Positions 15,237-50,779 of a stretch of DNA of 51,368 nt are shown piece by piece. The first letter of the stretch is position 1; every line of letters begins with the position of its first letter. Made by a program: the position numbers and the translations under genes. The stretch comes from a virus. A model generated the notes under the pieces. That model was not told the DNA's origin. It did no database searches and saw only the letters and a list, made by a program, of their open reading frames with translations. Location: IMG/VR virus record IMGVR_UViG_3300045988_135063; one strand, 5' to 3'.

Positions 15237-15253
15237 AAAGCCCTCCTAAATAA

Positions 15254-17347: not shown

Positions 17348-17379
17348 ATCCCCTATGTCCTCCTTATAAAATTTGTATT

Positions 17380-17404
17380 AAAAAAGAGGCTTAATCAAGC
17401 CTCT
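17380..17404 (-). terminator. Terminator-like hairpin between scaffold and capsid genes
   Basis: 8-bp stem agaggctt/aagcctct, 4-nt loop, A-run. Confidence 0.6.
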
Positions 17405-17417
17405 CAATTTCTTGCAT

Positions 17418-18014: not shown

Positions 18015-18201
18015 TTCTTTTTTCCTCCTATATTTTTTTATATAGTATGGAGGGGAAAACCCCTCACACACAATTTATTAAATAGGTAGGGAAAAAAGAT
18101 ATATTGTAACTATGAAATATACAAATTGCATAAACACCATTACAAAGTTTTCCCTTGCCTCTTATAACATTTAGTACAAGTATAAAGGGAAAATTAAACC
18201 A

Positions 18202-19182: not shown

Positions 19183-19196
19183 TTTACCCTCCTATG

Positions 19197-19228
19197 TAAA
19201 AAAAAGGAGTGGCTATATAGCCAACTCC
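19197..19228 (-). terminator. Hairpin overlapping the portal stop
   Basis: ggag.ggcta/tagcc..ctcc stem after an A-run. Confidence 0.4.
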
Positions 19229-28890: not shown

Positions 28891-29212
28891 TACAAGACAC
28901 CTCCCCCCAGACTTTTAATACCTTTCTTATCTTATCTTTTGACCTTTTCACATTATTAAAAGTTGCTTGGGTAGTGTAATTATACATTTTGGCAATCTCC
29001 TCAAGTGTATATCCTTGTATGAAATACAGGTTAAAGACATCTAATTGTGTTTTTGTTAATTTTGCCTTTTTAATTAATATTTCCATATCAACAATGGTAT
29101 CTATTACATCAAAATTACTTGTATAATATGCCTGTTCCTTTAACATTGGTAAATTTTTTACTGTACTGTATACAGTCTTTTCATTGTAACGTATATTACT
29201 TTTATTGCTCAT
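28883..29212 (-). CDS. Sigma-70 region-4-like / late transcription regulator-like protein
   Basis: 109 aa. LTKTQLDVFNLYFIQGYTLEEIAKMYNYTTQATFNNVKRSKDKI matches the region-4 HTH pattern. Confidence 0.5.
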   Translation of the reverse strand: MSNKSNIRYNEKTVYSTVKNLPMLKEQAYYTSNFDVIDTIVDMEILIKKAKLTKTQLDVFNLYFIQGYTLEEIAKMYNYTTQATFNNVKRSKDKIRKVLKVWGEVSCNE

Positions 29213-29738
29213 CTAATAATTTATTTATTATATTTAGTACCTCCCTTTGTAATTCCTCTATAGTTCCATTATTAACTATTGTTATATCAGCCTCTACTAC
29301 TTCGGAAAACTGCTCCGTTTCGTGGCTTAAATCTTCTAGGTTAAACACATCCCCAGAGTTTAGCATTCTTGATAATCTAACACCCTCATCTGCCTCTATT
29401 TTGATTATCGTAAATCCATTTTCTTTTAATGCTTTTACCTCGTTTTCTTGTCTAACATCGGTTATAACTATTCTGTGATAATCTTCTTTTTGCACAGTCT
29501 TTAGTAGATAGTTAACCCATACATCAGCATCTAGTTTTCTCATGGATTGACCTATATATTGATAGTGTTTTCTAGGTTTACCTTGTTCTCTAGCAGTTGG
29601 AAAATATTTATCTATTATCTCACCTATACCATCAGCAAAAGCATATTTTTTAAAGTCATATTCATTAATAAGCCATTCCCCTATGGTATCCTTACCACTC
29701 CTCATTTTCCCTATTAAGCCAATCTTTAACTTTTTCAT
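29202..29738 (-). CDS. Deoxynucleoside monophosphate kinase-like P-loop protein
   Basis: 178 aa. N-terminal GLIGKMRSGKDT P-loop, with layout as in phage dNMP kinases. Confidence 0.55.
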   Translation of the reverse strand: MKKLKIGLIGKMRSGKDTIGEWLINEYDFKKYAFADGIGEIIDKYFPTAREQGKPRKHYQYIGQSMRKLDADVWVNYLLKTVQKEDYHRIVITDVRQENEVKALKENGFTIIKIEADEGVRLSRMLNSGDVFNLEDLSHETEQFSEVVEADITIVNNGTIEELQREVLNIINKLLDEQ

Positions 29739-29924: not shown

Positions 29925-30236
29925 ATGAGAAAAAACATCAAGGATTTAATGTATAGTAGCATTAATAATGACTTAAAGGATTTAGTGGATAGGCATGGAG
30001 AAATAACAGTTAATTGTAAACTGGATGAACTTTTGGAGGAAAGAGGGTTATCACAAAAAGAGTTTTCTAAAATGTCTGGACTTAGAGAAAACATTATCTC
30101 GGAGTTTAAAAATCTAAAAAAACACAATATTAATTTGGGTACTTTGGTAATTATTATGTGTGTTTTGGGAATAACAGATATAACAGATGTATTAGAGATT
30201 GAATTTGGATTACGAAATTTACATCATATGGTATAA
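29925..30236 (+). CDS. XRE-family HTH regulator (candidate lysogeny repressor)
   Basis: 103 aa. LDELLEERGLSQKEFSKMSGLRENIISEFKN. One of only two plus-strand genes. Confidence 0.7.
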   Translation: MRKNIKDLMYSSINNDLKDLVDRHGEITVNCKLDELLEERGLSQKEFSKMSGLRENIISEFKNLKKHNINLGTLVIIMCVLGITDITDVLEIEFGLRNLHHMV

Positions 30237-31387: not shown

Positions 31388-31567
31388 TTATTTTGAATAT
31401 GGCTCTAAAAGTTTAGTCAATATATCTATATCATTAAAATCGTGTCTGTATAGATCAATCTGCTTATTATTATTTGTGTTTATGATTGATATACCACCAT
31501 CTACTATTTCAACTAATTTATAATCCTTATATATACCTCTTAAATCATTTATTATATTTAAATTCAT
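31388..31567 (-). CDS. Hypothetical small protein (59 aa), not in the ORF track
   Basis: The ATG overlaps the polA stop (TAATG). Translates to MNLNIINDLRGIYKDYKLVEIVDGG... Confidence 0.4.
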   Translation of the reverse strand: MNLNIINDLRGIYKDYKLVEIVDGGISIINTNNNKQIDLYRHDFNDIDILTKLLEPYSK

Positions 31568-33867
31568 TATATTATGCTCCTATCCTCTATCCACTCTTTG
31601 AATGGGACACCTTGCCCCCATCTTTTACTTATTTCAATATCACATTTAAACGGTATTGATAGCCTTACTGCATCCCTCTGTATTTCAGATATTTTTAAAA
31701 TCTGTTCCTTAGTTGCATTCTCAGGTATTTCTATTAATATCTCATCGTGTATAGTTGCCAACATTCTCCACTCGTCCCCAAGTGTTCTCAAGTGTTTCTC
31801 TACTTCTACCATAGCTATTTTCATAATATCGGCACTCGATCCTTGAATGACTGCATTTACCGACTGCCTATTTACTCTCATATACTCCTTTGATAGCTCC
31901 CAGTATTTTGTTTTTAACTCTCTAGGCACATTCTTCTCAGTCCAAATATTAAACTTTTCCTTTTTAACTATCTCCTGTACTCTTTTTTCTACTGCTTTAA
32001 ATCTTTTGGCTACTTGAGGATGTCCAATAAATCTCCTTTTTCTTCCGAGCATAGTTTCAACATAACCTTGAGCATCTGCCTCATCGTGTTTACCTTCTAT
32101 GAATCTTGCTACATCCTCATAACTTGAGTAAAAGTCCTCTATTATTTGCTCTGCCTCCTCGACAGTTATGCCTACCTGTTGACTTAATGTAAATGCAGAG
32201 GTCCCGTACATTGTTGCTAATAATACTACCTTTGAAAGTTTCCTCCATTTAGAGCCATCTCCACACTCCTCTATAGGTTTCTTAAATACTGTAGATGCCA
32301 AAGATGAGTATAAATCTTTGCCTGTTAAATAAGGCTCTTTTAATTTATCATCTTTAGCCATATGGCTTAATACCCTCGGCTCGATCTGTGAGTAGTCGCA
32401 ACCCATGATAATTTTACCCTCTGGGGCAACTATTAACTTTCTAGCATCATACGGTAAATTTTGTAGATTCGGATTATTAGATGCAAATCTACCTGTAGCA
32501 GTAGCACTTTGATTAAATGAGCCATGCAATCTGTTGTCCCTCTTACATACCTTTTGAGGTAGTGGCTCTATGTAAGTAGTTAATAATTTATTTAAAGCTC
32601 TATACTCTAAAAGCCTCTCAATATATTTAACCTCTGGATGATCCTTTGCCTCTTTTTTTACTATCTCTTTTAAAGTTGCTGCATCGACCTTACTTTTATA
32701 TTTATCCTCTATTCCCCACACATTATAAATGATATTTCCTAACTGTTGGTTAGAGTTTATATTTGTATCTACCCCAAAGCCTTCTTTAATTTCATTCTCT
32801 AATAGTTCAATCTTGACCCTCAAGTCTTGCCCATAGTCCTCTGCAAAATTTAAATCAATGGCAAATCCATTCTTCTCCATTTCATAACATATATTTGTTA
32901 TAGGTAGCTCTACCTTAAAATATAAATTATGTAGTTTCGGCATCTTATTAAAATACTCCATTATCCATAAATGCAATTTATATGTTAGGTGGGTATCTTT
33001 ACAAGCATATACAGTACCTATATCAAGTGGTGTATTCTCAAAACCACCTTTACCGAATAGCTCCTCGTAAGTTAAAGATTTATCCTCAAATCCGAAATGC
33101 TCTCCGTATCGTGTAGCTAGGTTTTTAAGTGCAAAAGATGGCTCATTTTCATTTAATAAATGCATAGCAACCATAGTATCCATAAATAAGCCTTTTAGAG
33201 TAATTCCTTCTTTTCTCAACATATGCATATCGAATTTAGCATTATGTAAGACCTTCTTTAAATCCTCATTCTCTAAAGGATTTTTCAAAGCCTCAAATAC
33301 ATATGATGCCTCTAGTTGTTCATCTGATACATTGTGTCTAACAGGTATATAAACGTGTTTATTCGCCTTTGGTAAAGTCATAGATACCCCAACAATAATA
33401 TCATCACCCCAAATATCTACTCCTGTAGTTTCGGTATCTAGTGCTATTATTTCCTCATCCCATAAAAGTTGGCATAGTGCCATTAGTTGGCTCTCTGTAT
33501 CAACTAATACATAATTCTCTGGTTTTTCTTGTACCATCTTTCGGATGATGCCCTCTCTCCTAATCTCTTTTAACTGCTTATACAGATTAAGTGCATGGGA
33601 TTTACTAAACTTAGATAAATCATCAACCCCCAATCCAATCTCACCCTGTTCTATGGCAGTCTTTACATCAAGTAACCTATCTCGATCTGTATCTGTTATC
33701 CTACTCTGGAATATTGCTTTCTTTGTTGATCCTGTGTGTGTAGTGTACCCAGTTTCCCACACCTCCTCCCAAGTAGGAATATATTTTTCTTTCTTCTTAA
33801 TTGCTTTCTTTACTCTCTCGATTTTCTTCGTATCGTTGTTTAAACTTAAATCTATTTTTAAATCCAT
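31567..33867 (-). CDS. polA: Family-A DNA polymerase with 3'-5' exonuclease domain
   Basis: ATG at 33865-33867 after TGGAGG. Exo motifs ALDTETTG and HNAKFDMHML. Pol motifs DYSQIEPRVL, RRKAK-like KVVLLATMYG and QGSSADI...ATIHDE. Confidence 0.9.
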   Translation of the reverse strand: MDLKIDLSLNNDTKKIERVKKAIKKKEKYIPTWEEVWETGYTTHTGSTKKAIFQSRITDTDRDRLLDVKTAIEQGEIGLGVDDLSKFSKSHALNLYKQLKEIRREGIIRKMVQEKPENYVLVDTESQLMALCQLLWDEEIIALDTETTGVDIWGDDIIVGVSMTLPKANKHVYIPVRHNVSDEQLEASYVFEALKNPLENEDLKKVLHNAKFDMHMLRKEGITLKGLFMDTMVAMHLLNENEPSFALKNLATRYGEHFGFEDKSLTYEELFGKGGFENTPLDIGTVYACKDTHLTYKLHLWIMEYFNKMPKLHNLYFKVELPITNICYEMEKNGFAIDLNFAEDYGQDLRVKIELLENEIKEGFGVDTNINSNQQLGNIIYNVWGIEDKYKSKVDAATLKEIVKKEAKDHPEVKYIERLLEYRALNKLLTTYIEPLPQKVCKRDNRLHGSFNQSATATGRFASNNPNLQNLPYDARKLIVAPEGKIIMGCDYSQIEPRVLSHMAKDDKLKEPYLTGKDLYSSLASTVFKKPIEECGDGSKWRKLSKVVLLATMYGTSAFTLSQQVGITVEEAEQIIEDFYSSYEDVARFIEGKHDEADAQGYVETMLGRKRRFIGHPQVAKRFKAVEKRVQEIVKKEKFNIWTEKNVPRELKTKYWELSKEYMRVNRQSVNAVIQGSSADIMKIAMVEVEKHLRTLGDEWRMLATIHDEILIEIPENATKEQILKISEIQRDAVRLSIPFKCDIEISKRWGQGVPFKEWIEDRSII

Positions 33868-33893
33868 AATGACCTCCAAATATTTGTTCAACT

Positions 33894-33923
33894 ATGAAGT
33901 AAATCATTTTAATTATTGTTTAC
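33894..33923 (-). promoter_or_regulatory. Phage-type promoter-like motif (site i): GTAAAC-N17-ACTTCAT
   Basis: Minus strand: GTAAAC aataattaaaatgattt ACTTCAT. About 27 nt upstream of the polA ATG. Confidence 0.5.
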
Positions 33924-33970
33924 TCTTTTGTATTAATTTTTTAAACACAAATTATATAAAGATTTGCAAT

Positions 33971-33995
33971 AAAAAAGAGGCTCTATTAAGCCTCT
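33971..33995 (-). terminator. Terminator hairpin
   Basis: 7-bp stem agaggct/agcctct after an A-run. The stop codon of the upstream ORF lies in the loop. Confidence 0.6.
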
Positions 33996-34312
33996 ATTAA
34001 ATCTAATTTATACAATAAATAATCTTCCTCAAACATCCATTTAAAGCCATATGCTGATTTATTCCTTATTTTCTTATTACGAACACCTCTACAAACTGAG
34101 GAAATTAATGGACTTCCGACCTTTCCAAAGTGTTCTAAAGCCTCTCCTATATAGTCCCATCTTCTCACAAAATCACCCTTTAAAGTTAGTTGTATAATTG
34201 GTTTACAATGTGGGTTATTAATTCCAACATGAATACCTTTTTCTTTCATCGTTCTACTTATTTTTGCTTTATGTTCCTCTGATAAATAATATCCAAATAT
34301 ATCGTATGGCAT
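33986..34312 (-). CDS. Homing-endonuclease-like DNA-binding protein (NUMOD3 plus NUMOD1-like) lacking a nuclease domain
   Basis: 108 aa. LSEEHKAKISRTMKEKG, NNPHCKP and ...SAYGFKWMFEEDY. Confidence 0.5.
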   Translation of the reverse strand: MPYDIFGYYLSEEHKAKISRTMKEKGIHVGINNPHCKPIIQLTLKGDFVRRWDYIGEALEHFGKVGSPLISSVCRGVRNKKIRNKSAYGFKWMFEEDYLLYKLDLIEA

Positions 34313-34451
34313 TTTTAAATTTCTCCTTATGTAATATTTAATTGGGTTTTTATGTAATTATAGATTACTATAATTAATAATCACAGTCAATAATATTATT
34401 ATATTTCCAATTATTACCTTGTATAAAACAAGTCTTTTTTGGGTATACCCA

Positions 34452-35162
34452 TTAGTTTATAACGTATTTACTCCCGTCCTCATTGAAAATAATTACATTT
34501 TTCCCTTTCCTACAATCATAGATCCATCTTTTAACATTGTTTATATCTGATGGTTTACCGTATTTATAAATGTTATAGGCAAATCTTTTTGCAAAATCAT
34601 CTTTATTTTTCAAAGTCAATTTTGTTAATGCTCCAGTATCAGTTGATTTATAAACAGATACCCCCATCTTTTCCCCCCTACGATTATAAATTACAATATC
34701 TGCTTTTTTGACCTTATCCTCATAATTATTTGAACCTCTAGCATCGATTCCTAGTTTTTGTAAACTATGTAGCAAGTTAACCTCATTAGCCATACTAATA
34801 AAATTACCCACTCTTTTCTCCATGTAGCCATTGGTAAATATATCACTATCCTCTCCCCATAAATCCAGAGTTAGTACCTCATATGGCTCTCCTTTTCGTC
34901 CATATTTTATAGACCAATTTCCTACTGGGTAATATTTCGATTTACCAGTAACTCTAATCTTACCACCATTAACCTCTGCCTCTTTTAGCATATTCTGTTT
35001 AATTTGAGCTGATATTACTTTAACTTGTATATCTTTTGGTATCTTCCCCTGTATAATCGGTCTTACTAGAGCAGGGTACATTGATGTATTACCATTTAAA
35101 AATCTTGATAACTCGTCTACTGCTTGTATTTTGTCATAACCTGTATAAACTTTCGTATTCAT
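34452..35162 (-). CDS. Hypothetical protein (236 aa)
   Basis: ORF with an RBS. KKADIVIYNRRGEKMGVSVYKS is faintly PD-(D/E)xK-like, which is very weak evidence. Confidence 0.55.
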   Translation of the reverse strand: MNTKVYTGYDKIQAVDELSRFLNGNTSMYPALVRPIIQGKIPKDIQVKVISAQIKQNMLKEAEVNGGKIRVTGKSKYYPVGNWSIKYGRKGEPYEVLTLDLWGEDSDIFTNGYMEKRVGNFISMANEVNLLHSLQKLGIDARGSNNYEDKVKKADIVIYNRRGEKMGVSVYKSTDTGALTKLTLKNKDDFAKRFAYNIYKYGKPSDINNVKRWIYDCRKGKNVIIFNEDGSKYVIN

Positions 35163-35194
35163 CCCCTATTTACTCCTATCTAATTTATTCATTT

Positions 35195-35224
35195 AATGAG
35201 TAAAGAGATTTACAAAATGTTTAC
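35195..35224 (-). promoter_or_regulatory. Phage-type promoter-like motif (site a): GTAAAC-N17-ACTCATT
   Basis: Minus strand: GTAAAC attttgtaaatctcttt ACTCATT. Confidence 0.45.
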
Positions 35225-35230
35225 AGGCAT

Positions 35231-35258
35231 AAAAAAGAGAGGCTTTTAAACCTCTCTT
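35231..35258 (-). terminator. Terminator hairpin
   Basis: 8-bp stem aagagagg/cctctctt after an A-run. Confidence 0.65.
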
Positions 35259-35283
35259 AGTTTTCTAGTATGTTATATTTTAT

Positions 35284-35931
35284 TTATGCACTTACTCTTA
35301 GTAGGAACTTTGTTCGATGTTGCTCAAACAAAAGATTTAATTCTTTTTCTCTATCAGTAGTACATTTCAACCCCAAATTTAACTCCTTTAGTCCACTCAA
35401 CTCTATAGCCTTTTTTAACAAGCCTGTTAATACAATTATTGATGTATTATAGCCATAAACATCTTTTAAATATTTATTAGCATTGTTATACAAATGGGTT
35501 ACTGCCGATTGATATGTTTGGGTTGCTTGTGTTCCAATTGTGTATTTATCGTAATCTCGTACTGTCCTACAAACTGATGGGTATTTTCTTTGAAACTTTT
35601 GGAATAATTTGAATTGCAACTCGGCTAACTCAAAAATCAATTCCTCATCAGACAAATCTAAATATTTTCCCTTCTGAGCCAAAGCTAGTTTTGTATTTGT
35701 AAAGCCCCAATCAAAATAATATATCCTTTCCCCTCTTTCATAATCCTTCTCCTCAGTTTCTTCCTCCAAGCCAACCAAAGCACACAACTCTTTATAATGT
35801 TTTTCTTTGAAGTCTTTCACTACTGTAGTTGTAAAAGAGTTACATAGATTATTTTTTACCACATATTTATAAAAATCTTCGTCAGAGTACTTCTCCCCGT
35901 ACTTTGCCCCTAATCTATACCATTTATTCAT
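35284..35931 (-). CDS. Hypothetical protein (215 aa)
   Basis: ATG at 35929-35931 after TAGGAGGG. Confidence 0.55.
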   Translation of the reverse strand: MNKWYRLGAKYGEKYSDEDFYKYVVKNNLCNSFTTTVVKDFKEKHYKELCALVGLEEETEEKDYERGERIYYFDWGFTNTKLALAQKGKYLDLSDEELIFELAELQFKLFQKFQRKYPSVCRTVRDYDKYTIGTQATQTYQSAVTHLYNNANKYLKDVYGYNTSIIVLTGLLKKAIELSGLKELNLGLKCTTDREKELNLLFEQHRTKFLLRVSA

Positions 35932-35989
35932 GCCTATCCCTCCTATGTTATTATAGGTAAATTGTAGCATATTTTTACAAAATAAGCAT

Positions 35990-36022
35990 AAAAAAAAGAG
36001 AGGTTTTTGATCCCCTCTCTCT
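35990..36022 (-). terminator. Terminator hairpin
   Basis: agagagg/cctctct stem after an 8-nt A-run. Confidence 0.6.
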
Positions 36023-36023
36023 C

Positions 36024-36218
36024 TTATTTAGATAATGCTCTTAGTAACCAGAATAACATCACACCATTTGCACATAAGGTTGCCTTTAATGGTTTAAGCC
36101 CAAAGTATAAAAATATTGGGCTAGATAGTACTGCTATTGATGTGCCTATGATATAAGCAACAATTAAAACTATTAGGGAGATTATGATCCCTCCAATTAA
36201 TGTATATATTACTTTCAT
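36024..36218 (-). CDS. Small two-helix membrane protein (64 aa)
   Basis: Very hydrophobic. Start lies 1 nt after the nupC-like stop. Confidence 0.5.
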   Translation of the reverse strand: MKVIYTLIGGIIISLIVLIVAYIIGTSIAVLSSPIFLYFGLKPLKATLCANGVMLFWLLRALSK

Positions 36219-36219
36219 A

Positions 36220-37398
36220 CTAGAAGAACATCCCCATTAAACTAGCAGATATTAAAGAAGTTAATACCCCACCTAGTAAAGCCTTGAACCCTAAAGAAGT
36301 TACCTCGTCAGCCTTTTCTGGGCAGAATGTTTTAAAGCCTCCTATAGTTATTCCTATTACAGAGAAGTTAGCAAAGTTGACTAGAGCTATTCCTAGCATT
36401 GCCTGAGTTCTAATAGATAAAGTACTCATTACCTCAGTTAAACCACCTATAGCCACATACTCATTTACGGCAGTTTTTAAACCGATAGCAGAGGTAAATG
36501 TAGCTATCTCACTTGAAGGTATTCCCATTAATTTAGCTAATGGATAAAGCATTATAGTAAATATCTCAGTTAAAGATGTGCCGAACCATCCTAGAACAAA
36601 ATTAACCAAAGCTATTAATGATATAAACCCTATCAATACTGCTCCTACCGATAAAGCTATATTTAAGCCATCCATAGCTCCAGAACCTATAGCATCAAAT
36701 ATATTAGAATGCTCAGAACCCTCTATTTTTATTTCTGTTGTTTTGCTTTCTTCTGTTTCTGGCACTAACATTTTAGCCATTAGTAAAGTAGCGAATGGGA
36801 CTGTTGCCATTTGTACCAGTATATATTCCATGTTTATCCCCATTGTAGAATATCCTAAAACCACAGATACAGATACAGAGGCAAATCCTCCTAATATAAC
36901 TGCAAATAATTCTGACCTTGTTAAATCTTTTAAGAAAGGTTTAGTTAATAATGGACTTTCTGTAGCACTTAAAAATGCATTACCAACTCCACAAAAACTC
37001 TCTACTGGAGTAGTACCCATTATTTTACTAACTATCCCACCTACAACCCTTACAAAGAATGGTATTACCTTTAAATAGTATAATAGAGCTATTAATGACC
37101 CTGTAAAACAAATTACTGATAATACTGTTATTGCAAAAGCACCTGTTCCTATTAAACTATCACCAAATACAAAAGATATTCCCTCAGAGCTAAATCCTAA
37201 CACAGTAGTTATGCCATTAGAAATACCCTTTAAAATCCATTGTCCTATTGATGTTTTTAATACAAAGAACATCATTACTATTTGGGCTAGTAGTCCTATA
37301 CCAACTGTCCTCCAGTTTATAGCCTTTCTGTTCTCTGAGAACAAATAACCCACACCTAATAAGAAAATGGTTGTTAAAATTCCATACAAAATATTCAC
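36220..37398 (-). CDS. nupC: Concentrative nucleoside transporter, NupC/CNT family
   Basis: 392 aa polytopic membrane protein. GFSSEGISFVFGD and NFANFSVIGITIGGFK align by eye with E. coli NupC GFANEGTNFVFG and FANFSSIGIIAGAVKG. Confidence 0.88.
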   Translation of the reverse strand: MNILYGILTTIFLLGVGYLFSENRKAINWRTVGIGLLAQIVMMFFVLKTSIGQWILKGISNGITTVLGFSSEGISFVFGDSLIGTGAFAITVLSVICFTGSLIALLYYLKVIPFFVRVVGGIVSKIMGTTPVESFCGVGNAFLSATESPLLTKPFLKDLTRSELFAVILGGFASVSVSVVLGYSTMGINMEYILVQMATVPFATLLMAKMLVPETEESKTTEIKIEGSEHSNIFDAIGSGAMDGLNIALSVGAVLIGFISLIALVNFVLGWFGTSLTEIFTIMLYPLAKLMGIPSSEIATFTSAIGLKTAVNEYVAIGGLTEVMSTLSIRTQAMLGIALVNFANFSVIGITIGGFKTFCPEKADEVTSLGFKALLGGVLTSLISASLMGMFF

Positions 37399-37426
37399 TT
37401 TTCAAAGTCCTCCTATTTATTTTTAT

Positions 37427-37723
37427 CTATAATAAACCTCTAGCCCTAAGTATACTGACTGCTCTGCTCCTAATCCTTATATGCTTATAAGGTAAATTAA
37501 AGCCAGATGCATGACTAAACTTAGTGGTAAAGGGTTTGTGCCATTTTACTTTTTTACAAATCTCTGGGTACTTCTTTTGTAACTCCAGTAATTCGTTACA
37601 CCATCTATCAAAAGTTGCATCATCAATTATATTCATGTCATACTCATAATAAATACAAGAATGTACTAAAATCTGATGCCTCCTCCTATTTATCAACTCT
37701 CGTATCCTCTCCGAGTTCTCCAT
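37427..37723 (-). CDS. Small protein resembling the N-terminal Ia domain of NAD-dependent DNA ligase
   Basis: 98 aa. IYYEYDMNIIDDATFDRWCNELLELQKKYPE compares with the LigA pattern YYxxDxPxISDxEYDxLxxEL..LE...P. Confidence 0.35.
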   Translation of the reverse strand: MENSERIRELINRRRHQILVHSCIYYEYDMNIIDDATFDRWCNELLELQKKYPEICKKVKWHKPFTTKFSHASGFNLPYKHIRIRSRAVSILRARGLL

Positions 37724-37751
37724 TGGTTACCTCCTATTGTTATTTACAAAT

Positions 37752-37781
37752 ATTAAGTAATAAAAAAGGAAAGATGTTTAT
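37752..37781 (-). promoter_or_regulatory. Phage-type promoter-like motif (site k): ATAAAC-N17-ACTTAAT
   Basis: Minus strand: ATAAAC atctttccttttttatt ACTTAAT. Overlaps a ggaaag/ctttcc hairpin. Confidence 0.4.
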
Positions 37782-37803
37782 CACCTTTCCGATTTTTTTT
37801 AAT

Positions 37804-38457
37804 TTATTTTTCTTTTCCCATTTCCTCTAATTTATCAGTAACTATTTGTACTAACTTTTGAGCATCCTCTGAATTATTTACAACATCCATATTATCCATA
37901 TCTATTACTATAATTGGTGATGCTTTATAACAGTTGTAAATCCACTCATCATAACCTTTCCACAATTCAAAGTAATATTGTTTAAGGGCATCATCTAACT
38001 CGTATCCCCTCCCCCTCTTTTTGATTCTCTCAAGCACTTTCTCAAAAGAGCCTTTTAGATAAACCATTAATTCTGGAGCTTTCTTTGGCATTCCATCAAT
38101 CTCTTTCACCATTTCCTCCAGTATTTCATCGTAAAGATCACTCTCTAACTGAGATATTCTCCCTAATCTACAATTCACATCTTTAAAATATTTATCTTCC
38201 CATAATGATCTATCTAAAACATTATTCGGATGAGATTGAGCCTCCTTAATGCTCATAAACCTACTACTTAAAAATTCTAACTGTAAAAGAAATGGATATC
38301 TTTTTGCCTGTATCTCTTCCTCTGAGGCAGTATAAAATTTCTCCAATACTCTATTATTCTCTACCTTTTCATAAAACACTTGAGAACCAAGAGCCTCACC
38401 TAAAATCTTGGCACAACTAGATTTACCTAGTCCTATCATTCCACCTATAACAATCAT
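37804..38457 (-). CDS. Deoxynucleoside kinase (dAK/dGK/dCK family)
   Basis: 217 aa. GMIGLGKSS P-loop, DRSLWED, RIKKRGRGYE. Confidence 0.85.
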   Translation of the reverse strand: MIVIGGMIGLGKSSCAKILGEALGSQVFYEKVENNRVLEKFYTASEEEIQAKRYPFLLQLEFLSSRFMSIKEAQSHPNNVLDRSLWEDKYFKDVNCRLGRISQLESDLYDEILEEMVKEIDGMPKKAPELMVYLKGSFEKVLERIKKRGRGYELDDALKQYYFELWKGYDEWIYNCYKASPIIVIDMDNMDVVNNSEDAQKLVQIVTDKLEEMGKEK

Positions 38458-38460
38458 TTA

Positions 38461-38658
38461 TTAAAACTCCTTTTTATTTAACATATCAAATATTACGTTC
38501 CTTAGTGTATTTAGAGCCTTTTCTTTTCGTTCTAAAGATTTCTGTAACTCTAAAATCTCCTTATCCTTTTCAGAGATAACTATCTTTTGATCCTGTATTA
38601 TGGTATGTAAGCCCTTTATCTCATTTTCTATAGATAATAAGGCTAATGATTTAACCAT
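38461..38658 (-). CDS. Small coiled-coil protein (65 aa)
   Basis: Start overlaps the tdk stop (TAATG). Confidence 0.5.
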   Translation of the reverse strand: MVKSLALLSIENEIKGLHTIIQDQKIVISEKDKEILELQKSLERKEKALNTLRNVIFDMLNKKEF

Positions 38659-39233
38659 TACACCATACCCCCTGTATTTAACTCAGAGTAACATTTCCTA
38701 CATAAAGGTGTGTATTTATCATATGAGCCTATGTCTATAGTTTCCTTATTAGCACCCTCTATATTTTTTCTAGCTGATATATGAGCATCGTTCCCACACT
38801 CATTACAAACTGCTTTAAACTTATTTATCACATCAGCATGACACATTAAAGAGCCTGTTACCATGAATGCAGCATTGTCAAAAGTTAAATCTAGCCCCGA
38901 GCAGTAAATCACTTTACCCTTATCTAGTAATCTTAAAATATCGTCTATAATTGTAAAATTAAAGAATTGTATCTCATCAATTAGTATAACATCAGCCTCT
39001 AGTACTTCATCACAATAAATACTATCATTTATATCTACAACCATTGACTGAGTATAATCAGATGCCTCCCCGTCATGGCTCACTATTTTAGTATTAGAGT
39101 ACCTAGCATCTATAGTAGGCTTTATGTAAAGTACTTTATCTTTAGCTATTGTATGCCTCTTACCTTGCCTTAATAGTTCTGTAGTCTTTCCAGAAAACAT
39201 ACTCCCTACATTAACAGTTAATTTCCTTTTCAT
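38658..39233 (-). CDS. tdk: Thymidine kinase
   Basis: ATG at 39231-39233. GSMFSGKTTELLR, LIDEIQFF and C-terminal CxxC...CxxC. Confidence 0.9.
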   Translation of the reverse strand: MKRKLTVNVGSMFSGKTTELLRQGKRHTIAKDKVLYIKPTIDARYSNTKIVSHDGEASDYTQSMVVDINDSIYCDEVLEADVILIDEIQFFNFTIIDDILRLLDKGKVIYCSGLDLTFDNAAFMVTGSLMCHADVINKFKAVCNECGNDAHISARKNIEGANKETIDIGSYDKYTPLCRKCYSELNTGGMV

Positions 39234-39234
39234 C

Positions 39235-39495
39235 TTACACAATCTCCTCACTTAAATATTTTTTAGATAGTGATATTATTAAATCATCTTTTCTACAAAT
39301 TAATCTAACTGTAGGATCTTCATCTATAGCCGATAATAAATAGCCATAATCTTTAAGGATTTTTCCATTAAAGCCTACGATATAATATTTATCACCGTAA
39401 GAGCTGAATATTCCTAAATCTCCATCACAATCTACTAAATCACCTAAAAATATACAACTAACATTTCTTTCTATGTGATTCTTTATTGTTGCCAT
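39235..39495 (-). CDS. Hypothetical protein (~86 aa)
   Basis: ATG at 39493-39495, 8 nt after GGAGG. Confidence 0.5.
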   Translation of the reverse strand: MATIKNHIERNVSCIFLGDLVDCDGDLGIFSSYGDKYYIVGFNGKILKDYGYLLSAIDEDPTVRLICRKDDLIISLSKKYLSEEIV

Positions 39496-39522
39496 AATCA
39501 TTACCTCCACATTTTTATATAA

Positions 39523-39552
39523 GATAAGTCAGTATATTTTCAAAATGTTTAC
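39523..39552 (-). promoter_or_regulatory. Phage-type promoter-like motif (site b): GTAAAC-N17-ACTTATC
   Basis: Minus strand: GTAAAC attttgaaaatatactg ACTTATC. Confidence 0.45.
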
Positions 39553-39554
39553 AT

Positions 39555-39581
39555 AAAAAAGAGGCTATATTAATAGCCCCT
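39555..39581 (-). terminator. Terminator-like hairpin overlapping the ruvC stop
   Basis: ggctat/atagcc stem after an A-run. Confidence 0.45.
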
Positions 39582-40104
39582 GTTTAATAGCATAAGCAAT
39601 ACCAACTGCAATAGCATCAGATACATCATCTGAGTAAAATTTCATATTCCTTTGATCCTCTACTAGAAAGTTTCTAACCTCATCCATGACCTCAGATTTA
39701 CTAGCCTTACCATCACCAGTAACTAATTTCTTTACAGATGGTGGGGTTATCTCCATTATATCCTTATTTCCTAATTGGTCTAAACAAATATAATCCACTA
39801 AACCAACCACTCTAAATATGGTTTGAGTTTCAGTTGCAAACCTACTAAAACCTCTTTCTCTTACTATATGTAAATCCTCACACGATTTTAAACCAAATTT
39901 CGATATAAAATCATTTAAAGCATTGTGTATTTCAACTAATTTTTGTGCATTAGTCTTTTTCCTCTTACCAGTTAATCCTTTATTGTCTACATATTCATAG
40001 CCTAATACTTTAATCTTTTTATCCTCTGTTATTGATAGTAGTACCATAGCAGGTAAATTCATTGATAAATCCATTGATAGTATTTTTTTATTATACATTC
40101 CCAT
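39565..40104 (-). CDS. ruvC: RuvC-like Holliday junction resolvase
   Basis: ILSMDLSMN at the N-terminus (the catalytic Asp position) and C-terminal DDVSDAIAVGIAY. About 179 aa. Confidence 0.7.
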   Translation of the reverse strand: MGMYNKKILSMDLSMNLPAMVLLSITEDKKIKVLGYEYVDNKGLTGKRKKTNAQKLVEIHNALNDFISKFGLKSCEDLHIVRERGFSRFATETQTIFRVVGLVDYICLDQLGNKDIMEITPPSVKKLVTGDGKASKSEVMDEVRNFLVEDQRNMKFYSDDVSDAIAVGIAYAIKQGLLI

Positions 40105-40783
40105 GATGCCCCCCTTTATCCGATGTGACCTGTTCAAGTCTATTTGATGCTATTTTAAAATAACTCTCATCTAGTTCTACACCTATAAAATACCTACCCG
40201 TATTAACACAAGCAACTCCTGTTGAACCACTACCCATAAATCCATCTAAAACAGTTTGCCCTTTATCTGTTGACTGTTCAACAAAAACCTGTAATAAGTC
40301 AACAGGTTTTTGAGTTGGATGCAACTTGTTACCTGTTTTATTTGCCTGTATAATGTCTGGTAATCTTTTACCATTCCTCAACCTTCGACCTTTGTGTCCA
40401 AATAATATAAACTCATGCTTAGGGGCATAACTCCCCTTTAAATCACCTGTACCATGAACATTTTTCTCCCAAACTATTATATTTTTTAGTTTAAAATATC
40501 GTTCAAAAGACCTTTTAAACTCATCAATATTGTGCCAACTACAAAAGCAGTATATGTGAGTGTTGTCCTTTAGTAGTGCATTGCATTTTTTTAGATATTC
40601 ATCCAAAAAATCTAAAGCAGCATCATTTTCTATTTTATTATACTTGTCTTTCCTTCTATTGCTTTTATAATTCATACCATAAGGGGGATCAGTTATTATG
40701 GCATCAACTGTTATGCCTTGATTAATTAAGTCATCCATCACATTCAAACAATCACCATTATATAATGCATAATGTTTAGTCAT
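40091..40783 (-). CDS. DNA methyltransferase, beta-class N6A/N4C (DPPY)
   Basis: IITDPPYG (motif IV) precedes DGFMGSGSTG (motif I). Confidence 0.85.
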   Translation of the reverse strand: MTKHYALYNGDCLNVMDDLINQGITVDAIITDPPYGMNYKSNRRKDKYNKIENDAALDFLDEYLKKCNALLKDNTHIYCFCSWHNIDEFKRSFERYFKLKNIIVWEKNVHGTGDLKGSYAPKHEFILFGHKGRRLRNGKRLPDIIQANKTGNKLHPTQKPVDLLQVFVEQSTDKGQTVLDGFMGSGSTGVACVNTGRYFIGVELDESYFKIASNRLEQVTSDKGGHHGNV

Positions 40784-41702
40784 TATTACCACCCCCATTA
40801 CATACTCCTTTATAGGTACAAAACAAACATTTATCCTCCTCTTTTGGTGGAACTTTCTTCTCCCTTACACATTTAGTTATATATGCATATTTATCTAACA
40901 ACTCTTTTATATCCTCATCTTTAACCTTATGGTAAAATACCCTAAAATCAAGTTTAGCATCTGCTCCTTTAGTCCAACCATCTTTTGCTAAACTTTCATA
41001 CATTATTAAATGCTCATCTATACCAAACAGAATAGCATAAGCAGTACATTGTGTTTTATGCCCTTCTTGAGCATCTTTCATTTTATAATTACCTACTGCT
41101 CCTATAGTAGTGGATTTGGTTTTAAACTCAAATCCAACCTCTTTATTTTCCTCTTTATTTAACAGAATACCATCACACATTCCATATATCCCAAAGGTTT
41201 CCCCGTTGTGTTCTATAATCTTAAATGTTTTTATATTCTGTTCCCATTTCGGCAAACCATTATCCATTTTAGATACTTTAAACATAGCCTCTGGCAACAT
41301 CTTTTCCATATACATTAAATCTTTTTGTACTGCCTCATGTACTGCCGAGGCATTCCTAGTCCATCTACGATGATAAGGGTAAAATGGTATTTCGTCCTTT
41401 TCGTATTTTAATGCCTTATAAAATAATTCTCTGTTACATTTAGATGCCCCAGACGGTGAAAAATATGTATAACCCTCCATTCCTTCTGGTATGTGTGGTT
41501 TTACTATATTCTCTACCTCTTTTACCTTTTGCTCTAGTAGAACTTTCTCAATATCCACATCTGCATAATAATCTAATGTGTGTAGATCATTAAACATATT
41601 ATACAAAGCAGATGCCATTTTAAGCCCACTCTCTGGTATAGCCTCAACTACTTGCTTTTTTAACTTAGTAGCCCCAGTTCTTGAAAAAATCAAATTACTC
41701 AT
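40776..41702 (-). CDS. PD-(D/E)xK exonuclease, Cas4/RecB-like, with a 4-Cys cluster
   Basis: GMCDGILL...GFEFKTKS, QCTAY, N-terminal SKCNRE and C-terminal CLFCTYKGVC. Confidence 0.7.
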   Translation of the reverse strand: MSNLIFSRTGATKLKKQVVEAIPESGLKMASALYNMFNDLHTLDYYADVDIEKVLLEQKVKEVENIVKPHIPEGMEGYTYFSPSGASKCNRELFYKALKYEKDEIPFYPYHRRWTRNASAVHEAVQKDLMYMEKMLPEAMFKVSKMDNGLPKWEQNIKTFKIIEHNGETFGIYGMCDGILLNKEENKEVGFEFKTKSTTIGAVGNYKMKDAQEGHKTQCTAYAILFGIDEHLIMYESLAKDGWTKGADAKLDFRVFYHKVKDEDIKELLDKYAYITKCVREKKVPPKEEDKCLFCTYKGVCNGGGNND

Positions 41703-41762: not shown

Positions 41763-41792
41763 TTACATCCTCCTGTTTAATAAAAATAGTAG

Positions 41793-42386
41793 CTATTGCT
41801 CTAATAACACCCTCAACTTTGTAAAATCTGGGTTTTCTCCTTTTTTCCAAACCAAATGGCAATACTCAATACTATCAGTTTTTTTATCTGAGGTAAAACT
41901 TATACGTTTATTATGAACAAAACAATATTTTGGCATAAAGTTTTTCCACAAATCCTCTCTTACCTTACCCCCAAAGTAATTTAATCTAAGCAACATTATT
42001 ACATAACCACCCTCTTTAACATCGTCAATGGCTTTTAATATTATGTCCTTAGAAATATTAAATGGTGGATTAGTTATAATAACATCATATTTACCTTTTA
42101 AATCTTTCTCAAGATAATTACCCTTCTCAGATGCTCGAGAATCATCTCTTATATCCAAAGTATTTACCACCAAATCATTATTGAATTGATATAATGCTTT
42201 TGGGTAAGACATTTCATTATCTGCATCCCCACCTGCACATGGGTCTAAAACTTTAACCCCACTCATTTTAAATATATGCTCATGCTTTTCAAACTCATAT
42301 AAAAACTGTAATATCTTTTCAACAGGTGTTACATAATAATCATTTTTATGCAAATCCCTACTATTACTCCTCAATGTACTACTCAT
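41793..42386 (-). CDS. N6-adenine DNA methyltransferase (NPPF)
   Basis: ATG at 42384-42386 after GGAGG. VLDPCAGGD (motif I) then IITNPPF (motif IV). Confidence 0.8.
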   Translation of the reverse strand: MSSTLRSNSRDLHKNDYYVTPVEKILQFLYEFEKHEHIFKMSGVKVLDPCAGGDADNEMSYPKALYQFNNDLVVNTLDIRDDSRASEKGNYLEKDLKGKYDVIITNPPFNISKDIILKAIDDVKEGGYVIMLLRLNYFGGKVREDLWKNFMPKYCFVHNKRISFTSDKKTDSIEYCHLVWKKGENPDFTKLRVLLEQ

Positions 42387-42403
42387 TTTAACCTCCAATT
42401 ATA

Positions 42404-42440
42404 CAAAGAAAGGGGGGCATTCCCCCCTCTTTTTCTTTTT
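42404..42440. terminator. Bidirectional-looking terminator
   Basis: agggggg/cccccct stem, 4-nt loop, A-rich on the left and T-rich on the right. Confidence 0.6.
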
Positions 42441-42454
42441 TAATCAACTGTTCC

Positions 42455-43114
42455 CTAGAAAGGTATTTCCTTATCTGCTTTATTTTCTTCCTCTGGTAAT
42501 TCCATTCCGAAATCAGCAACGGGGAAGTTAGCCTCATGTAAGACTTTAACCATTAAATCCTCTGTTCTTGGGTTTAATACAGTACTGAAAAATTCATCAG
42601 TAACAACGATACCCTCTAAAGCATCAAATTGCTCTTGGTCATAGCCTTTCATTTTTATTATTGGATTTAATAGATAGGCAGTTTCAGTTTTTTCCCCTTC
42701 TTTTTTAAGGTTAAAGGCTAACTCGTCTATCTCGTCCTTATATTCTTCTATTGCAGATATTAATTTCTTTGCTTGTCCTTTTGATACATCTAATATCATT
42801 GTTGTACCAGTTTCCATATCTCCGAAAGCAAATACATATCTTTTCTTAGGTCTTAATACCTCAAATTCCTCTATACCAGATTTAGATGCAGTACATAAAG
42901 GACACTCTTTACCTAATACCTCTATACAAGGTTGAGTATATATCTTATGATTAAACGATGAGTGTGCTTTATACTCTACATAATCATTTAGTCCTAGTAT
43001 TCTTACTTTTCTACTTTGCCCAGATTTTAGGCTTATTCTCACTTTTGATAAATCAACATTTTGCCTGTTTATGTTTTCTTTTGCTTGTTCTCCTCTAGCA
43101 GTAAATATTGCCAT
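42455..43114 (-). CDS. ssb: ssDNA-binding protein, gp32-like zinc motif and acidic IPF tail
   Basis: ATG at 43112-43114 after GGAGG. PCIEVLGKECPLC. C-terminal EEENKADKEIPF. Confidence 0.55.
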   Translation of the reverse strand: MAIFTARGEQAKENINRQNVDLSKVRISLKSGQSRKVRILGLNDYVEYKAHSSFNHKIYTQPCIEVLGKECPLCTASKSGIEEFEVLRPKKRYVFAFGDMETGTTMILDVSKGQAKKLISAIEEYKDEIDELAFNLKKEGEKTETAYLLNPIIKMKGYDQEQFDALEGIVVTDEFFSTVLNPRTEDLMVKVLHEANFPVADFGMELPEEENKADKEIPF

Positions 43115-48101: not shown

Positions 48102-49031
48102 CTACATCTTAGCTACTAATCTAAGTATTTTACTATTTACAAATTGAGCATCCTTTACTTGCTCTGCATGAGTGTAGTGTTTTGTAAAGTATTTGAAAGT
48201 AGAATAAACACCACCACCGAAAATTGATATTTTTTCAACCTGTCCTACTTTAAATTTAGCCTCCTCTATAGAAGATACTACACCATCCACAAACTCCTGT
48301 ACCATTAAGTATATAGCAGATATATCAACAGGTACTTGGTTTATAGGGATTACTGTTTTTTCCTTGCAGATTATTTTTTCTATATCTCCAGTAGTAAATG
48401 AACCCCCGTAATTATAGTTTAAATACTCTGCTATATTTAGATACATATTTGTTATACTTGCATCTAATGTTGTGTAATTTACAGGGGACATATCTTCCCA
48501 CTCTACAACGTTGATAGTTCCACCACCTATATCTATAGTTAATTGATGGCTCATATCTTCATTAAGAACAGGTAAAGCACCCTCTATAAAGAATTTTAAA
48601 TCTACTATCTCTATTGTATATGTATTATATTTTCCAGTATTCTCATCTTTTATAGCAAGTTCTTGAACTCCCCAACTTTCTATTATAGAACGAACTTCCT
48701 CGACTTTTCTCTCAAAGTTCATAATTGGTAAGCCTAAACAAATTTTAGCTCTTACATTTCTTTTTCTTCCAGATTTTAAAGCTATTGCAGTAAGCACACA
48801 TAATTTATATGCATCTGTTGAATATTTAAACTCACCCATTACTGCCTTTCCATCACCTACAACATAATCAACTCCATTATAATTGACTTGGTGTACTTCT
48901 ATTCTTTTATCTAACTCTAATTTCTTTCCTATTTTAACCTTAGTTGCAAATTTCATATTTGAGAAATTAGCATATGCATTTCCTATATCAAAACCTTCTG
49001 TTAAATTTGGTATTACTAATGTATTATTCAT
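48102..49031 (-). CDS. parM: Actin-like segregation ATPase (ParM/Alp family)
   Basis: 309 aa. Phosphate-1 FDIGNAYAN, phosphate-2 IDIGGGTINV, adenosine motif IFGGGVYS. Confidence 0.75.
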   Translation of the reverse strand: MNNTLVIPNLTEGFDIGNAYANFSNMKFATKVKIGKKLELDKRIEVHQVNYNGVDYVVGDGKAVMGEFKYSTDAYKLCVLTAIALKSGRKRNVRAKICLGLPIMNFERKVEEVRSIIESWGVQELAIKDENTGKYNTYTIEIVDLKFFIEGALPVLNEDMSHQLTIDIGGGTINVVEWEDMSPVNYTTLDASITNMYLNIAEYLNYNYGGSFTTGDIEKIICKEKTVIPINQVPVDISAIYLMVQEFVDGVVSSIEEAKFKVGQVEKISIFGGGVYSTFKYFTKHYTHAEQVKDAQFVNSKILRLVAKM

Positions 49032-49823: not shown

Positions 49824-50747
49824 TTACAGTTCCATAAAATCAGAATAATCTGCATCTATATAATCAGCAGTTTGATCTATCAACTGCTTACTTTTCTTAT
49901 CTGCTTTTTGCTGCTCCAGTAAAACTCGTACTACCTCGTTGCATAACCATGAGCAAAGCATACCTATAGTTGGGTATGGGTATTTACTATTCCCCCATCT
50001 TGATGGGTATTCCTTTATCGTTAAATGTATAATCTCTACAATCTCATCAATACTAAAATTCTTTATAAGTTTGTTTTTAATTAAACCTAAATCCCTTTTA
50101 TAGTTTATTACATATGACTTGCCATATGCCTCTTTATATTGTTCTGCAAAATAATGTGCAAGGTCTTTACTATTCTTAATAACTTTCTTAGATGGTTCTA
50201 TAACCTCCTCAGAGCCATTTTCCGTAGTTTCTACAACCTTATCAGTAATTTCATCAACAGGACTATCACAACCTGTTACAAGGGCATCCTCTCGTACCTC
50301 AAACCTATCCTCATCTATAGCATCTATATCAACTGTATTTATATCTCTATGGTCCTCTATATCAATATCTTTAGGTGAAAGATCGAATATAGTATATACA
50401 GAGTTTTTACGTTGACCTGTTCCCCTTAAAACTCTATCTAAGATAGGCATTCCATTTATCTGTATCTCTAATAAGTTAGATACTGCTTTGTTTACAGTAG
50501 TTAAAGATAAACCTGTTATCTCTGCAATCTGTCTTTGTGTGGGATAGCACTCTCCTCCAGTATTCATAAATGAGGCTATTCCTAATAATACCGTAAGTTC
50601 CGAACCCCTCACATGATGGAGTAAACCATTCCTAATAGCAGTAACATCTATTTTTAAATAGGTATCATATCGAGTCTGCTTATTTGTGGCATCATGCTCA
50701 GTATTAAACACGATAGATAAAAATTTACCAGTTTCTATATTTTTCAT
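49824..50747 (-). CDS. wHTH DNA-binding protein, replication-initiator-like
   Basis: ATG at 50745-50747 after AAGGAGG. ECYPTQRQIAEITGLSLTTVNKAVSNLLE. First gene of the replication cluster. Confidence 0.5.
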   Translation of the reverse strand: MKNIETGKFLSIVFNTEHDATNKQTRYDTYLKIDVTAIRNGLLHHVRGSELTVLLGIASFMNTGGECYPTQRQIAEITGLSLTTVNKAVSNLLEIQINGMPILDRVLRGTGQRKNSVYTIFDLSPKDIDIEDHRDINTVDIDAIDEDRFEVREDALVTGCDSPVDEITDKVVETTENGSEEVIEPSKKVIKNSKDLAHYFAEQYKEAYGKSYVINYKRDLGLIKNKLIKNFSIDEIVEIIHLTIKEYPSRWGNSKYPYPTIGMLCSWLCNEVVRVLLEQQKADKKSKQLIDQTADYIDADYSDFMEL

Positions 50748-50779
50748 TTTATCAAGTCCTCCTTTAATCATTACAATAA

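Follow-up and report, generated by a model that had tools for sequence, protein, structure and literature searches.

The window analysed here, i.e., the whole 51,368-nucleotide stretch of viral DNA held as IMG/VR record IMGVR_UViG_3300045988_135063, carries on its minus strand a gene for a NupC/CNT-family nucleoside transporter (36220-37398; 392 amino acids (aa), GTG start) packed among genes for nucleoside salvage and DNA replication. Along the minus strand, the order is a thymidine kinase (TK; type II, bacterial type; 38658-39233), a 65-aa open reading frame (ORF; 38461-38658), a deoxynucleoside kinase (dNK; 37804-38457), a terminator-like hairpin (37768-37790), a solo Nlig-Ia domain protein (37427-37723), NupC, a 64-aa hydrophobic ORF (36024-36218), and a second terminator-like hairpin (35988-36027). 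On the same strand lie a family-A DNA polymerase with 3'-5' exonuclease (PolA; listed as an ORF at 31567-33891, or to 33867) and a deoxynucleoside monophosphate (dNMP) kinase (29202-29738; 178 aa). An earlier note, made from the letters of the DNA, had already named a full-length NupC-type transporter beside a dNK and a TK, a dNMP-kinase-like gene, a family-A polymerase nearby, and a 64-aa membrane protein coupled downstream, and all of these assignments were borne out by the searches and comparisons described below.

All three CNT domains occur in NupC, in order and above the Pfam gathering scores, namely PF01773 (1.2e-25; 90.3 bits versus a cut-off of 27), PF07670 (8.5e-10; 39.5 bits versus 29.6), and PF07662 (1.3e-52; 179 bits versus 32.3), the three families with which the earlier note had suggested searching. 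Moreover, residues 3-391 match positions 9-421 of vcCNT (chain 3TIJ; phmmer, E = 2e-74), the closest homologues are also 391-392 aa long at 100% coverage, and the GTG start has an AGGAGG sequence 9 nt upstream. The protein also matches PHROG 25571, a family labelled "unknown function", over its full length (2e-82). An AF2 model built with 26 homologues reached a pLDDT of 87 and a pTM of 0.87, and Foldseek aligned it with TM-scores of 0.89-0.92 to 3TIJ (vcCNT), 5L26 (CNTnw), and 8TZ1, with mammalian CNT3 included among the matches. The three domains, the end-to-end match to vcCNT, the model fold, the start site, and the homologue lengths together make this protein full length, untruncated, and an ordinary member of the CNT family by fold; thus, the truncation that the earlier note had allowed for did not materialize.

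The TK, 191 aa from its ATG (the longest ORF reaches 39251, and a near-identical relative is also called at 191 aa), matches PF00265 (1.3e-43; 149.3 bits versus a cut-off of 20.6), scores slightly below the cut-off of the NCBIfam equivalog NF003296 (174.9 versus 183 bits), and shows in translation the P-loop GSMFSGKT, the motif DEIQFF, and two Cys pairs, CNEC...CRKC, corresponding to zinc-ribbon cysteines. The 217-aa dNK matches PF01712 (2.2e-35; 122.7 bits versus a cut-off of 27), has the Mycoplasma deoxynucleoside kinase 2JAQ as its closest solved structure (1.5e-20), and contains a GLGKS P-loop, a DRS motif, and the Arg-rich lid RIKKRGRGYE. The dNMP kinase is recognized by PF21448 (3.2e-17; 63.4 bits versus a cut-off of 27.1) and by PHROG 139, "deoxynucleoside monophosphate kinase" (5.5e-50), while the PolA assignment comes from a 98% identical gene in the related contig L002, for which precomputed Pfam annotation lists PF01612, PF22619, and PF00476. 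As the earlier note had observed, ribonucleotide reductase (RNR), thymidylate synthase, and dUTPase were not recognized: no family match was obtained in Pfam and PHROG scans of the window ORFs of at least 90 aa other than the 107-aa ORF at 15674-15997 in the head-tail module, and all three are also absent from the precomputed Pfam annotation of L002, a contig 97-98% identical to the window.

The setting of these genes is a complete phage genome. The first 27 nt of the window are identical to its last 27 nt by sequence comparison, which indicates a circular assembly of ~51,341 bp. PHROG searches recognized, within the first 23 kb, genes for an endolysin, for the tail proteins (tail fibre, Dit, and tape measure), and for the major head protein, the portal, and the large terminase (TerL), and, within the last 12 kb, genes for primase, DnaB, and DnaC along with RuvC, a Cas4-like exonuclease, a partition protein, and two DNA methyltransferases; with structural and replication genes both present, the window is a bona fide siphovirus genome, in which NupC is flanked by phage genes on both sides. 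Its G+C content is ~0.32 and nearly every gene is on the minus strand. IMG/VR holds a 49.9-kb contig 97-98% identical to the window, and more copies occur across several sequencing runs. The NupC phylogeny and the G+C content point to gut Clostridia as the probable host, and a search based on TerL found no relative among 185,579 species genomes. As regards lifestyle, the window also contains a ParM-like (ALP_N) partition gene (48102-49031), a gene for a RepL/DnaD-like helix-turn-helix (HTH) protein (49824-50771), a small serine recombinase/invertase gene (23430-24053), which is the sole recombinase, with no integrase among the window ORFs scanned, and an oppositely oriented HTH repressor-like gene (29925-30236), so that the phage may persist as a plasmid-prophage.

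The transporter has been kept for a long time in related phages. A search of 5.8 billion proteins returned a graded series of NupC homologues, from 99% down to 58% identity, and the window protein forms a clade with the homologues P0001-P0008 at 100% bootstrap. Three of these, at 72%, 69%, and 62% identity (P0004, P0007, and P0008, respectively), come from phages of the window's own type, which share its replication module and gene order, an NDT (nucleoside deoxyribosyltransferase) gene being added in two of the three. All clade members whose contigs were read belong to this PolA phage type and show the succession TK, small ORF, dNK, optional NDT, Nlig-Ia, NupC, small transmembrane ORF, and PolA; the syntenic relatives of the window region are the loci L006, L019, and L020. 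Pairwise dN/dS values for NupC are 0.13-0.25 at 62-99% protein identity, with dS near saturation. NupC is, therefore, retained in the long term under purifying selection in diverged relatives.

Beyond this clade, NupC next to a dNK, often with a TK or an NDT, is found again in five or more further phage backbones, which makes at least six in all. A myovirus-like phage with baseplate J and sheath-initiator genes (L008) encodes TK, NupC, dNK, and NDT. In the cultured human gut isolate Zhenhengia yiwuensis NSJ-12 (PMC8140505), an integrated prophage (L102; JACRSY010000008.1, 33027-54199) has NupC inside its replication module, the order being integrase, repressor, SNF2, PDDEXK, DUF669, NupC, a 61-aa transmembrane ORF, TK, dNK, D5 primase, small terminase (TerS), and TerL; in the public record this gene is named merely as a bacterial "NupC/NupG family transporter". 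Contigs of 130-240 kb from IMG/VR and from metagenomes combine dNK and NupC with tail-fibre genes, a sigma factor, DUF1064, RecJ, and DnaE, and in one of these large phages (L012) the dNK preceding NupC is 59% identical to that of the window. Another lineage, represented by ERZ27247535 k141_70641 (L103) and the similar L014, contains DnaE, dNK, NrdD, NrdG, NDT, NupC, and TK, so that anaerobic RNR and an import-based supply coexist in one phage, L103. Finally, L016 (G+C 0.43) carries a split PolA, RuvC, dNK, NupC, Nlig-Ia, TK, and a dNMP kinase. NDT (PF05014) is found in relatives from several of these groups, namely L006, L008, L020, L014, and L103. A separate case is L018 (IMGVR_UViG_3300033688_000039, 6764-21048), with porin, TerD, flavodoxin-like protein, NupC, phiEco32-type ligase, amidoligase, and GATase genes, which is probably a phage of a Gram-negative host and whose NupC is of the canonical Gln154/Ser371 type. 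As a side observation, the family-A polymerase of L016, a 62-kb phage, is encoded at 382-4642 in two ORFs of 633 and 358 aa, between which lies a 370-aa ORF with no Pfam match.

The NupC tree, which is a bootstrapped neighbour-joining tree and thus distance-based rather than maximum likelihood, nests the window protein among the NupC proteins of Clostridia, its nearest genome copies being at 60% identity in a metagenome-assembled genome of Cellulosilyticaceae and at 56% in UMGS1389. On this tree, the cellular origin of the phage gene is traceable to Clostridia; with its place between phage genes in a complete genome and its retention in diverged relatives, NupC has the marks of a phage auxiliary metabolic gene, a metabolic gene of host descent that phages keep. 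The nearest neighbours of the L008 copy are chromosomal Cellulosilyticaceae NupC proteins (87% bootstrap), a grouping of this copy with the window clade receiving 0%, so that at least two separate exchanges of NupC between phages and hosts are needed, and a single origin of all phage copies was rejected. True chromosomal NupC genes (five loci: L009, L021, L022, L023, and L105) are solitary and lie beside regulators.

The substrate-binding site was compared with those of vcCNT and hCNT3, the residue roles being taken from PMC7440666 and PMC4139061. Six of the eight nucleoside contacts are kept in the phage protein, i.e., T146, E147, V179, E313, F342, and N344 (vcCNT T155, E156, V188, E332, F366, and N368), and two are changed, with A145 in place of vcCNT Q154 and V347 in place of vcCNT S371. 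The Na-site residues N140 and S174 (vcCNT N149 and S183) are conserved. Over the four cation-site positions of vcCNT, N149, V152, S183, and I184, the window protein reads N, L, S, and V; in the vcCNT structure, positions 152 and 184 bind through the backbone. Both substitutions would be a feature of a subtype and not decay particular to the window phage, because they are widespread among the 120 closest homologues retrieved, 119 of which lack Gln at 154 and 101 of which have Val at 371. Compared with the bacterial CNTs (TC 2.A.41; vcCNT, CNTnw, and E. coli NupC), the phage protein belongs to the same fold and length class, with 8 transmembrane helices and two re-entrant hairpins, at 36-37% identity and with E156, E332, N368, F366, N149, and S183 common to both; unlike them, it is phage-encoded, has Ala for Q154 and Val for S371, falls below the NCBIfam cut-off, and is followed by a conserved small membrane ORF.

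The residue at 371 follows the presence of a dNK to a large extent. The residue at this position and the presence of a dNK no more than 5 kb away were scored at 130 loci: Val was accompanied by a dNK at 26 loci and stood without one at 4, whereas Ser or Thr was accompanied by a dNK at 3 loci and stood without one at 84; these loci are phylogenetically structured and not independent, and the pattern spans several clades. The four Val loci lacking a dNK within 5 kb comprise one that is truncated, one with a dNK at 6.5 kb, one with a TK only, and one with neither. A change from Ser to Val takes two nucleotide changes. The idea that Val371 marks phage copies was ruled out by the Val-type NupC of a bacterial dNK-NupC operon (L104) and by the canonical Gln/Ser-type protein of the probable phage L018, and the revised rule, i.e., that Val371 goes with an adjacent dNK, has exceptions in both directions, namely L114, L115, and L127 (Ser with dNK) and L124 and L128 (Val, no dNK). 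The three Ser loci with a dNK are one lineage, and the dNK in question carries a group II intron: in L114 (4624-7982), and also in L115 and L127, the gene is interrupted by ~2.7 kb encoding a 611-aa group II intron reverse transcriptase/maturase.

In vcCNT, Ser371 hydrogen-bonds the ribose, and 2'-deoxyuridine is bound ~five times more weakly than uridine (PMC4139061). It is a reasonable hypothesis that the Val subtype is tuned to deoxynucleosides. On a broader and more tentative reading, to which we give odds well short of even, the CNT subtype with Val371, where nearly all other CNTs have the ribose-contacting Ser, and a small residue at 154, coupled to dNK, would be a deoxynucleoside-specialized importer, and dNK-NupC would have been repeatedly captured or exchanged by gut Clostridia phages as an "outside-in" supply line for deoxynucleoside triphosphates (dNTPs). 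That line could further include TK, NDT, and dNMP kinase and, in the window clade, a dedicated small membrane partner, an extension offered just as tentatively. Should the deoxynucleoside-importer reading be true, phages would compete directly for extracellular deoxynucleosides from lysed neighbours or host DNA, and the sugar specificity of CNT proteins in general would be predictable from one residue of the binding site.

Taken at the level of gene content, the most probable explanation, to which we assign a probability of roughly 0.7, is that the phage feeds its DNA replication with nucleosides imported from outside the cell through NupC and the salvage kinases. NupC, a predicted trimeric cation/nucleoside symporter of the elevator type, would be expressed alongside the replication genes and reach the host membrane, where it would draw nucleosides, probably mainly deoxynucleosides, from the nucleic-acid-rich gut environment. 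The phage TK and dNK would trap these nucleosides as dNMPs, the phage dNMP kinase would convert them into deoxynucleoside diphosphates, the host nucleoside diphosphate kinase would form the dNTPs, and the family-A polymerase of the phage would consume them. In addition, a phage-encoded copy would escape whatever regulation the host applies to its own nupC. Since RNR, thymidylate synthase, and dUTPase were not found, salvage would be the only self-encoded route of this phage to more dNTPs. In relatives with an NDT, bases can be redistributed among deoxynucleosides, as in the Lactobacillus pathway. The encoded proteins would cover every step from an external nucleoside to a deoxynucleoside diphosphate. 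Transport of nucleosides, a substrate range that includes deoxynucleosides, expression in step with replication, a boosted precursor supply, and a resulting benefit for the phage are what the genes and their arrangement suggest.

Several observations weigh against this explanation. The NCBIfam model for nupC, TIGR00804, matches NupC over its full length (E = 4.8e-105) with 351.9 bits, under the curated cut-off of 442, a score in keeping with a divergent CNT subtype. Neither vcCNT nor the human CNTs vary at Ser371, and a variant of hCNT1 at this position, S546P, is non-functional (PMC4139061), so that V347 might possibly mean altered or reduced activity in the phage protein. The hairpins bracket a unit made of Nlig-Ia, NupC, and the 64-aa ORF, and the scan found no promoter-like site directly upstream of it. 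Related hosts have their own NupC, and the need of the phage for a copy of its own is a matter of argument. Lastly, import is a supplement and not always a replacement for de novo synthesis, because one related lineage (L103) carries NrdD and NrdG as well; the proposal of the earlier note that import takes the place of de novo synthesis is, hence, not general.

Other explanations share part of this evidence. The nearest one keeps the import route and overlaps the nucleoside-supply explanation, differing only in what is selected for: import and kinases would rebuild dNTP pools under a nucleotide-depleting defence or a host shutdown of synthesis, instead of simply speeding up replication. Host defences that deplete nucleotides include dCTP deaminases, dGTPases, and similar enzymes. 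An import route bypasses host de novo synthesis completely, one relative (L020) has a weak Tad2-like match a few genes away, and the solo Nlig-Ia domain, described in 81 phages and proposed as a NAD+ sensor in virus-host conflicts (PMC9503650), shares the hairpin-bracketed unit of NupC. However, the window yielded no gene recognizable as defence or anti-defence, and we regard a counter-defence role as unlikely, at perhaps one chance in a handful. The same Nlig-Ia gene lends some colour to the idea of a different cargo, in which NupC would import nicotinamide riboside or a non-canonical nucleoside and, with Nlig-Ia, restore NAD+ instead of DNA precursors; Nlig-Ia lies immediately upstream of NupC and also near it in the distant L016, two substrate-contact positions are unlike those of characterized CNTs, and PnuC transporters for nicotinamide riboside are known from phages (PMC6163359). 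Nevertheless, no nicotinamide riboside kinase, nicotinamide mononucleotide (NMN) adenylyltransferase, or other NAD-salvage enzyme was found, and what accompanies NupC from lineage to lineage is a dNK, with TK or NDT, whereas L008, the Zhenhengia prophage, the large phages, and L103 lack Nlig-Ia, which makes this cargo very improbable.

A role in lysogenic conversion, in which NupC would be expressed from a prophage or phage-plasmid and give the bacterium nucleosides as a source of carbon, nitrogen, or precursors, would suit the resemblance of the hairpin-bracketed unit to an insulated cassette, the ParM-like ALP_N, RepL/DnaD-like, serine recombinase, and repressor-like genes, which leave a temperate or plasmid-prophage lifestyle possible, and the presence of one NupC copy in an integrated prophage of a cultured strain. 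The position of the gene speaks differently: in every lineage, NupC sits within the replication module, tightly spaced with TK, dNK, and polymerase genes and on the same strand as the lytic genes, instead of beside an integrase or a repressor at the end of a prophage; no promoter-like site of its own was found in the scan of 33800-40200; and NupC also occurs in the 130-240-kb phages, with no integrase in the 21 kb examined. We, therefore, consider conversion improbable, though less so than the different cargo. That NupC is an inert passenger, i.e., a recently captured host gene without a phage role, draws on the clear derivation of the family from Clostridia hosts, but it is hardly credible for a gene kept at full length and in the same position down to 62% identity with the dN/dS values given above, whose nearest bacterial genome copy is just 60% identical, and which was acquired independently by, or moved among, at least six backbones. 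Position in the replication module, constant partnership with dNK, and purifying selection are, in sum, what disfavours the conversion, different-cargo, and passenger alternatives relative to the supply of DNA precursors by import.

How unusual a phage-borne nucleoside importer is depends on where one looks. Against 50,697 GenBank phage records, megablast found no close DNA relative and tblastn gave nine weak matches at 26-35% identity, all in unannotated records. One of the nine was inspected, OR844992.1, and was rejected as a phage NupC, since it is a Staphylococcus aureus chromosomal psuK-psuG-nupC-nan locus (psuK and psuG being genes for pseudouridine kinase and glycosidase) in an UNVERIFIED_ORG record; the other eight are the same kind of unannotated multi-contig submission. 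These "Staphylococcus/Listeria/Salmonella phage" records (OR844992.1 and its siblings, H1-H9) hold host chromosomal DNA, as seen in the one inspected, and phage records of this kind can yield false "phage-encoded" matches. Pattern-based scans of 2.9 million IMG/VR contigs with two peptide patterns, in turn, found at least 10 NupC loci. The view of the earlier note that such an importer is unusual in phages holds for curated resources (GenBank phages, BFVD, and the published survey); in metagenomes the gene is no one-off, since at least six backbones carry it. A survey of viral transporters published in 2018 lists phages with Mg2+, Na/glucose, Na/Ca, and PnuC transporters and reports nucleoside transporters only in two herpesviruses (PMC6163359). 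In the literature searched, no report of a phage-encoded CNT, NupC, or nucleoside permease was found, the one OmpK match concerning a Tsx-like phage receptor only. Likewise, no description of the phage setting, of an importer-kinase cassette that recurs, or of the binding-site signature was met with in the sources searched.

Among known systems, one parallel is offered by the PnuC transporters of nicotinamide riboside and NMN, which occur in at least 35 phages (Greiner et al. 2018, PMC6163359). Like them, phage NupC is a host-derived polytopic importer of a ribosylated small molecule, presumably sustaining a metabolite pool during infection; PnuC differs in family and fold, in its NAD-precursor cargo, and in being unpaired with deoxynucleoside kinases. 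Virus-borne nucleoside transporters are also known from eukaryotic viruses, i.e., the ENT-type genes of two gammaherpesviruses (PMC6163359) and the Musca domestica hytrosavirus protein B2YG43, the sole CNT fold in BFVD (TM-score 0.90, normalized to the query). These differ in having eukaryote hosts, in belonging to the ENT family or being a 579-aa eukaryote-type CNT at 22% identity, and in that no kinase cassette is reported for them. The intracellular enzymes of the window module are the same as the phage-encoded TK, dNK, and dNMP kinases (e.g., the T5-type dNMP kinase family PF21448) and those of Lactobacillus-type deoxynucleoside salvage (NDT and deoxynucleoside kinases), with NDT added in the relatives of the window phage; unlike Lactobacillus-type salvage, the module extends outward by a membrane importer encoded in the same phage module.

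Phages obtain more nucleotides by degrading host DNA, by encoding RNR or thymidylate synthase, and by encoding kinases. A self-encoded membrane importer would add a fourth route, fed from the surroundings of the cell. Through it, the productivity of gut phages would be linked to the extracellular pool of nucleosides and DNA, and host control or depletion of dNTP pools might be circumvented. Moreover, CNT proteins take up nucleoside-analogue drugs, e.g., gemcitabine and ribavirin, so that phage-borne copies could change bacterial drug uptake in infection or lysogeny. The Zhenhengia yiwuensis NSJ-12 prophage is a usable experimental system in a cultured organism, and the Ser371 to Val signature accompanying dNK provides a testable rule of sugar specificity in a pharmacologically important transporter family.

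The remaining genes of the locus deserve a closer description. The 64-aa ORF, with about two transmembrane helices, has its ATG 1 nt after the TAG of NupC and is 100% identical in L001-L005, the exact protein being present on 79 contigs. Throughout the window clade, the gene after NupC is a small membrane ORF with two helices, at 23-44% identity and with an NPxL..FG.K motif. Syntenic homologues of 63-73 aa stand directly after NupC in L006 (11195-11401), L019 (2205-2426), and L020 (6294-6485) and share the motif NP(I/L)Lx(Y/N)(F/Y)G(L/I/V)K. In the Zhenhengia prophage, the 61-aa hydrophobic ORF (L102, 11173-11358) overlaps the NupC stop, with no detectable similarity to the 64-aa ORF, and chromosomal NupC loci are without such a small membrane ORF. 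The 64-aa ORF has no Pfam or PHROG match, and a protein search for a wider family returned near-identical sequences only. Upstream of NupC, the solo Nlig-Ia protein consists of domain Ia of LigA, which binds NAD+, and lacks the ligase body (98 aa; PF22745, 3.2e-30; PHROG 6466); a homologue lies close to NupC in L006, L019, L020, and L016, and no mention of a link between Nlig-Ia and a nucleoside importer was found in the literature searched. The hairpin scan of 33800-40200 gave 9 terminator-like sites versus 1.6 expected from shuffles, among them the two named above, the one after the 64-aa ORF having a 16-bp stem and a T run, and Rfam at the gathering threshold gave no match anywhere in the window, including for a regulatory RNA upstream of NupC.

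The 65-aa ORF between TK and dNK, known from the ORF list and without a Pfam or PHROG family match, has a small ORF at the same position in relatives. In the comparison of window 37804-38658 with L002 8742-9596, this ORF and dNK show synonymous differences (pS) of 0.27-0.38, with flanking genes at ~0.03, and a dN/dS of 0.11-0.22; such divergence from a relative that is otherwise 97-98% identical looks like a recombination tract bringing in another allele. A second difference among close relatives concerns the DNA methyltransferase genes at 40091-40798 and 41793-42398, which are absent from L001-L004, contigs otherwise 96-98% identical, the gaps corresponding to window 40087-40800 and 41773-42455. 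These two genes appear to be variable methyltransferase cassettes.

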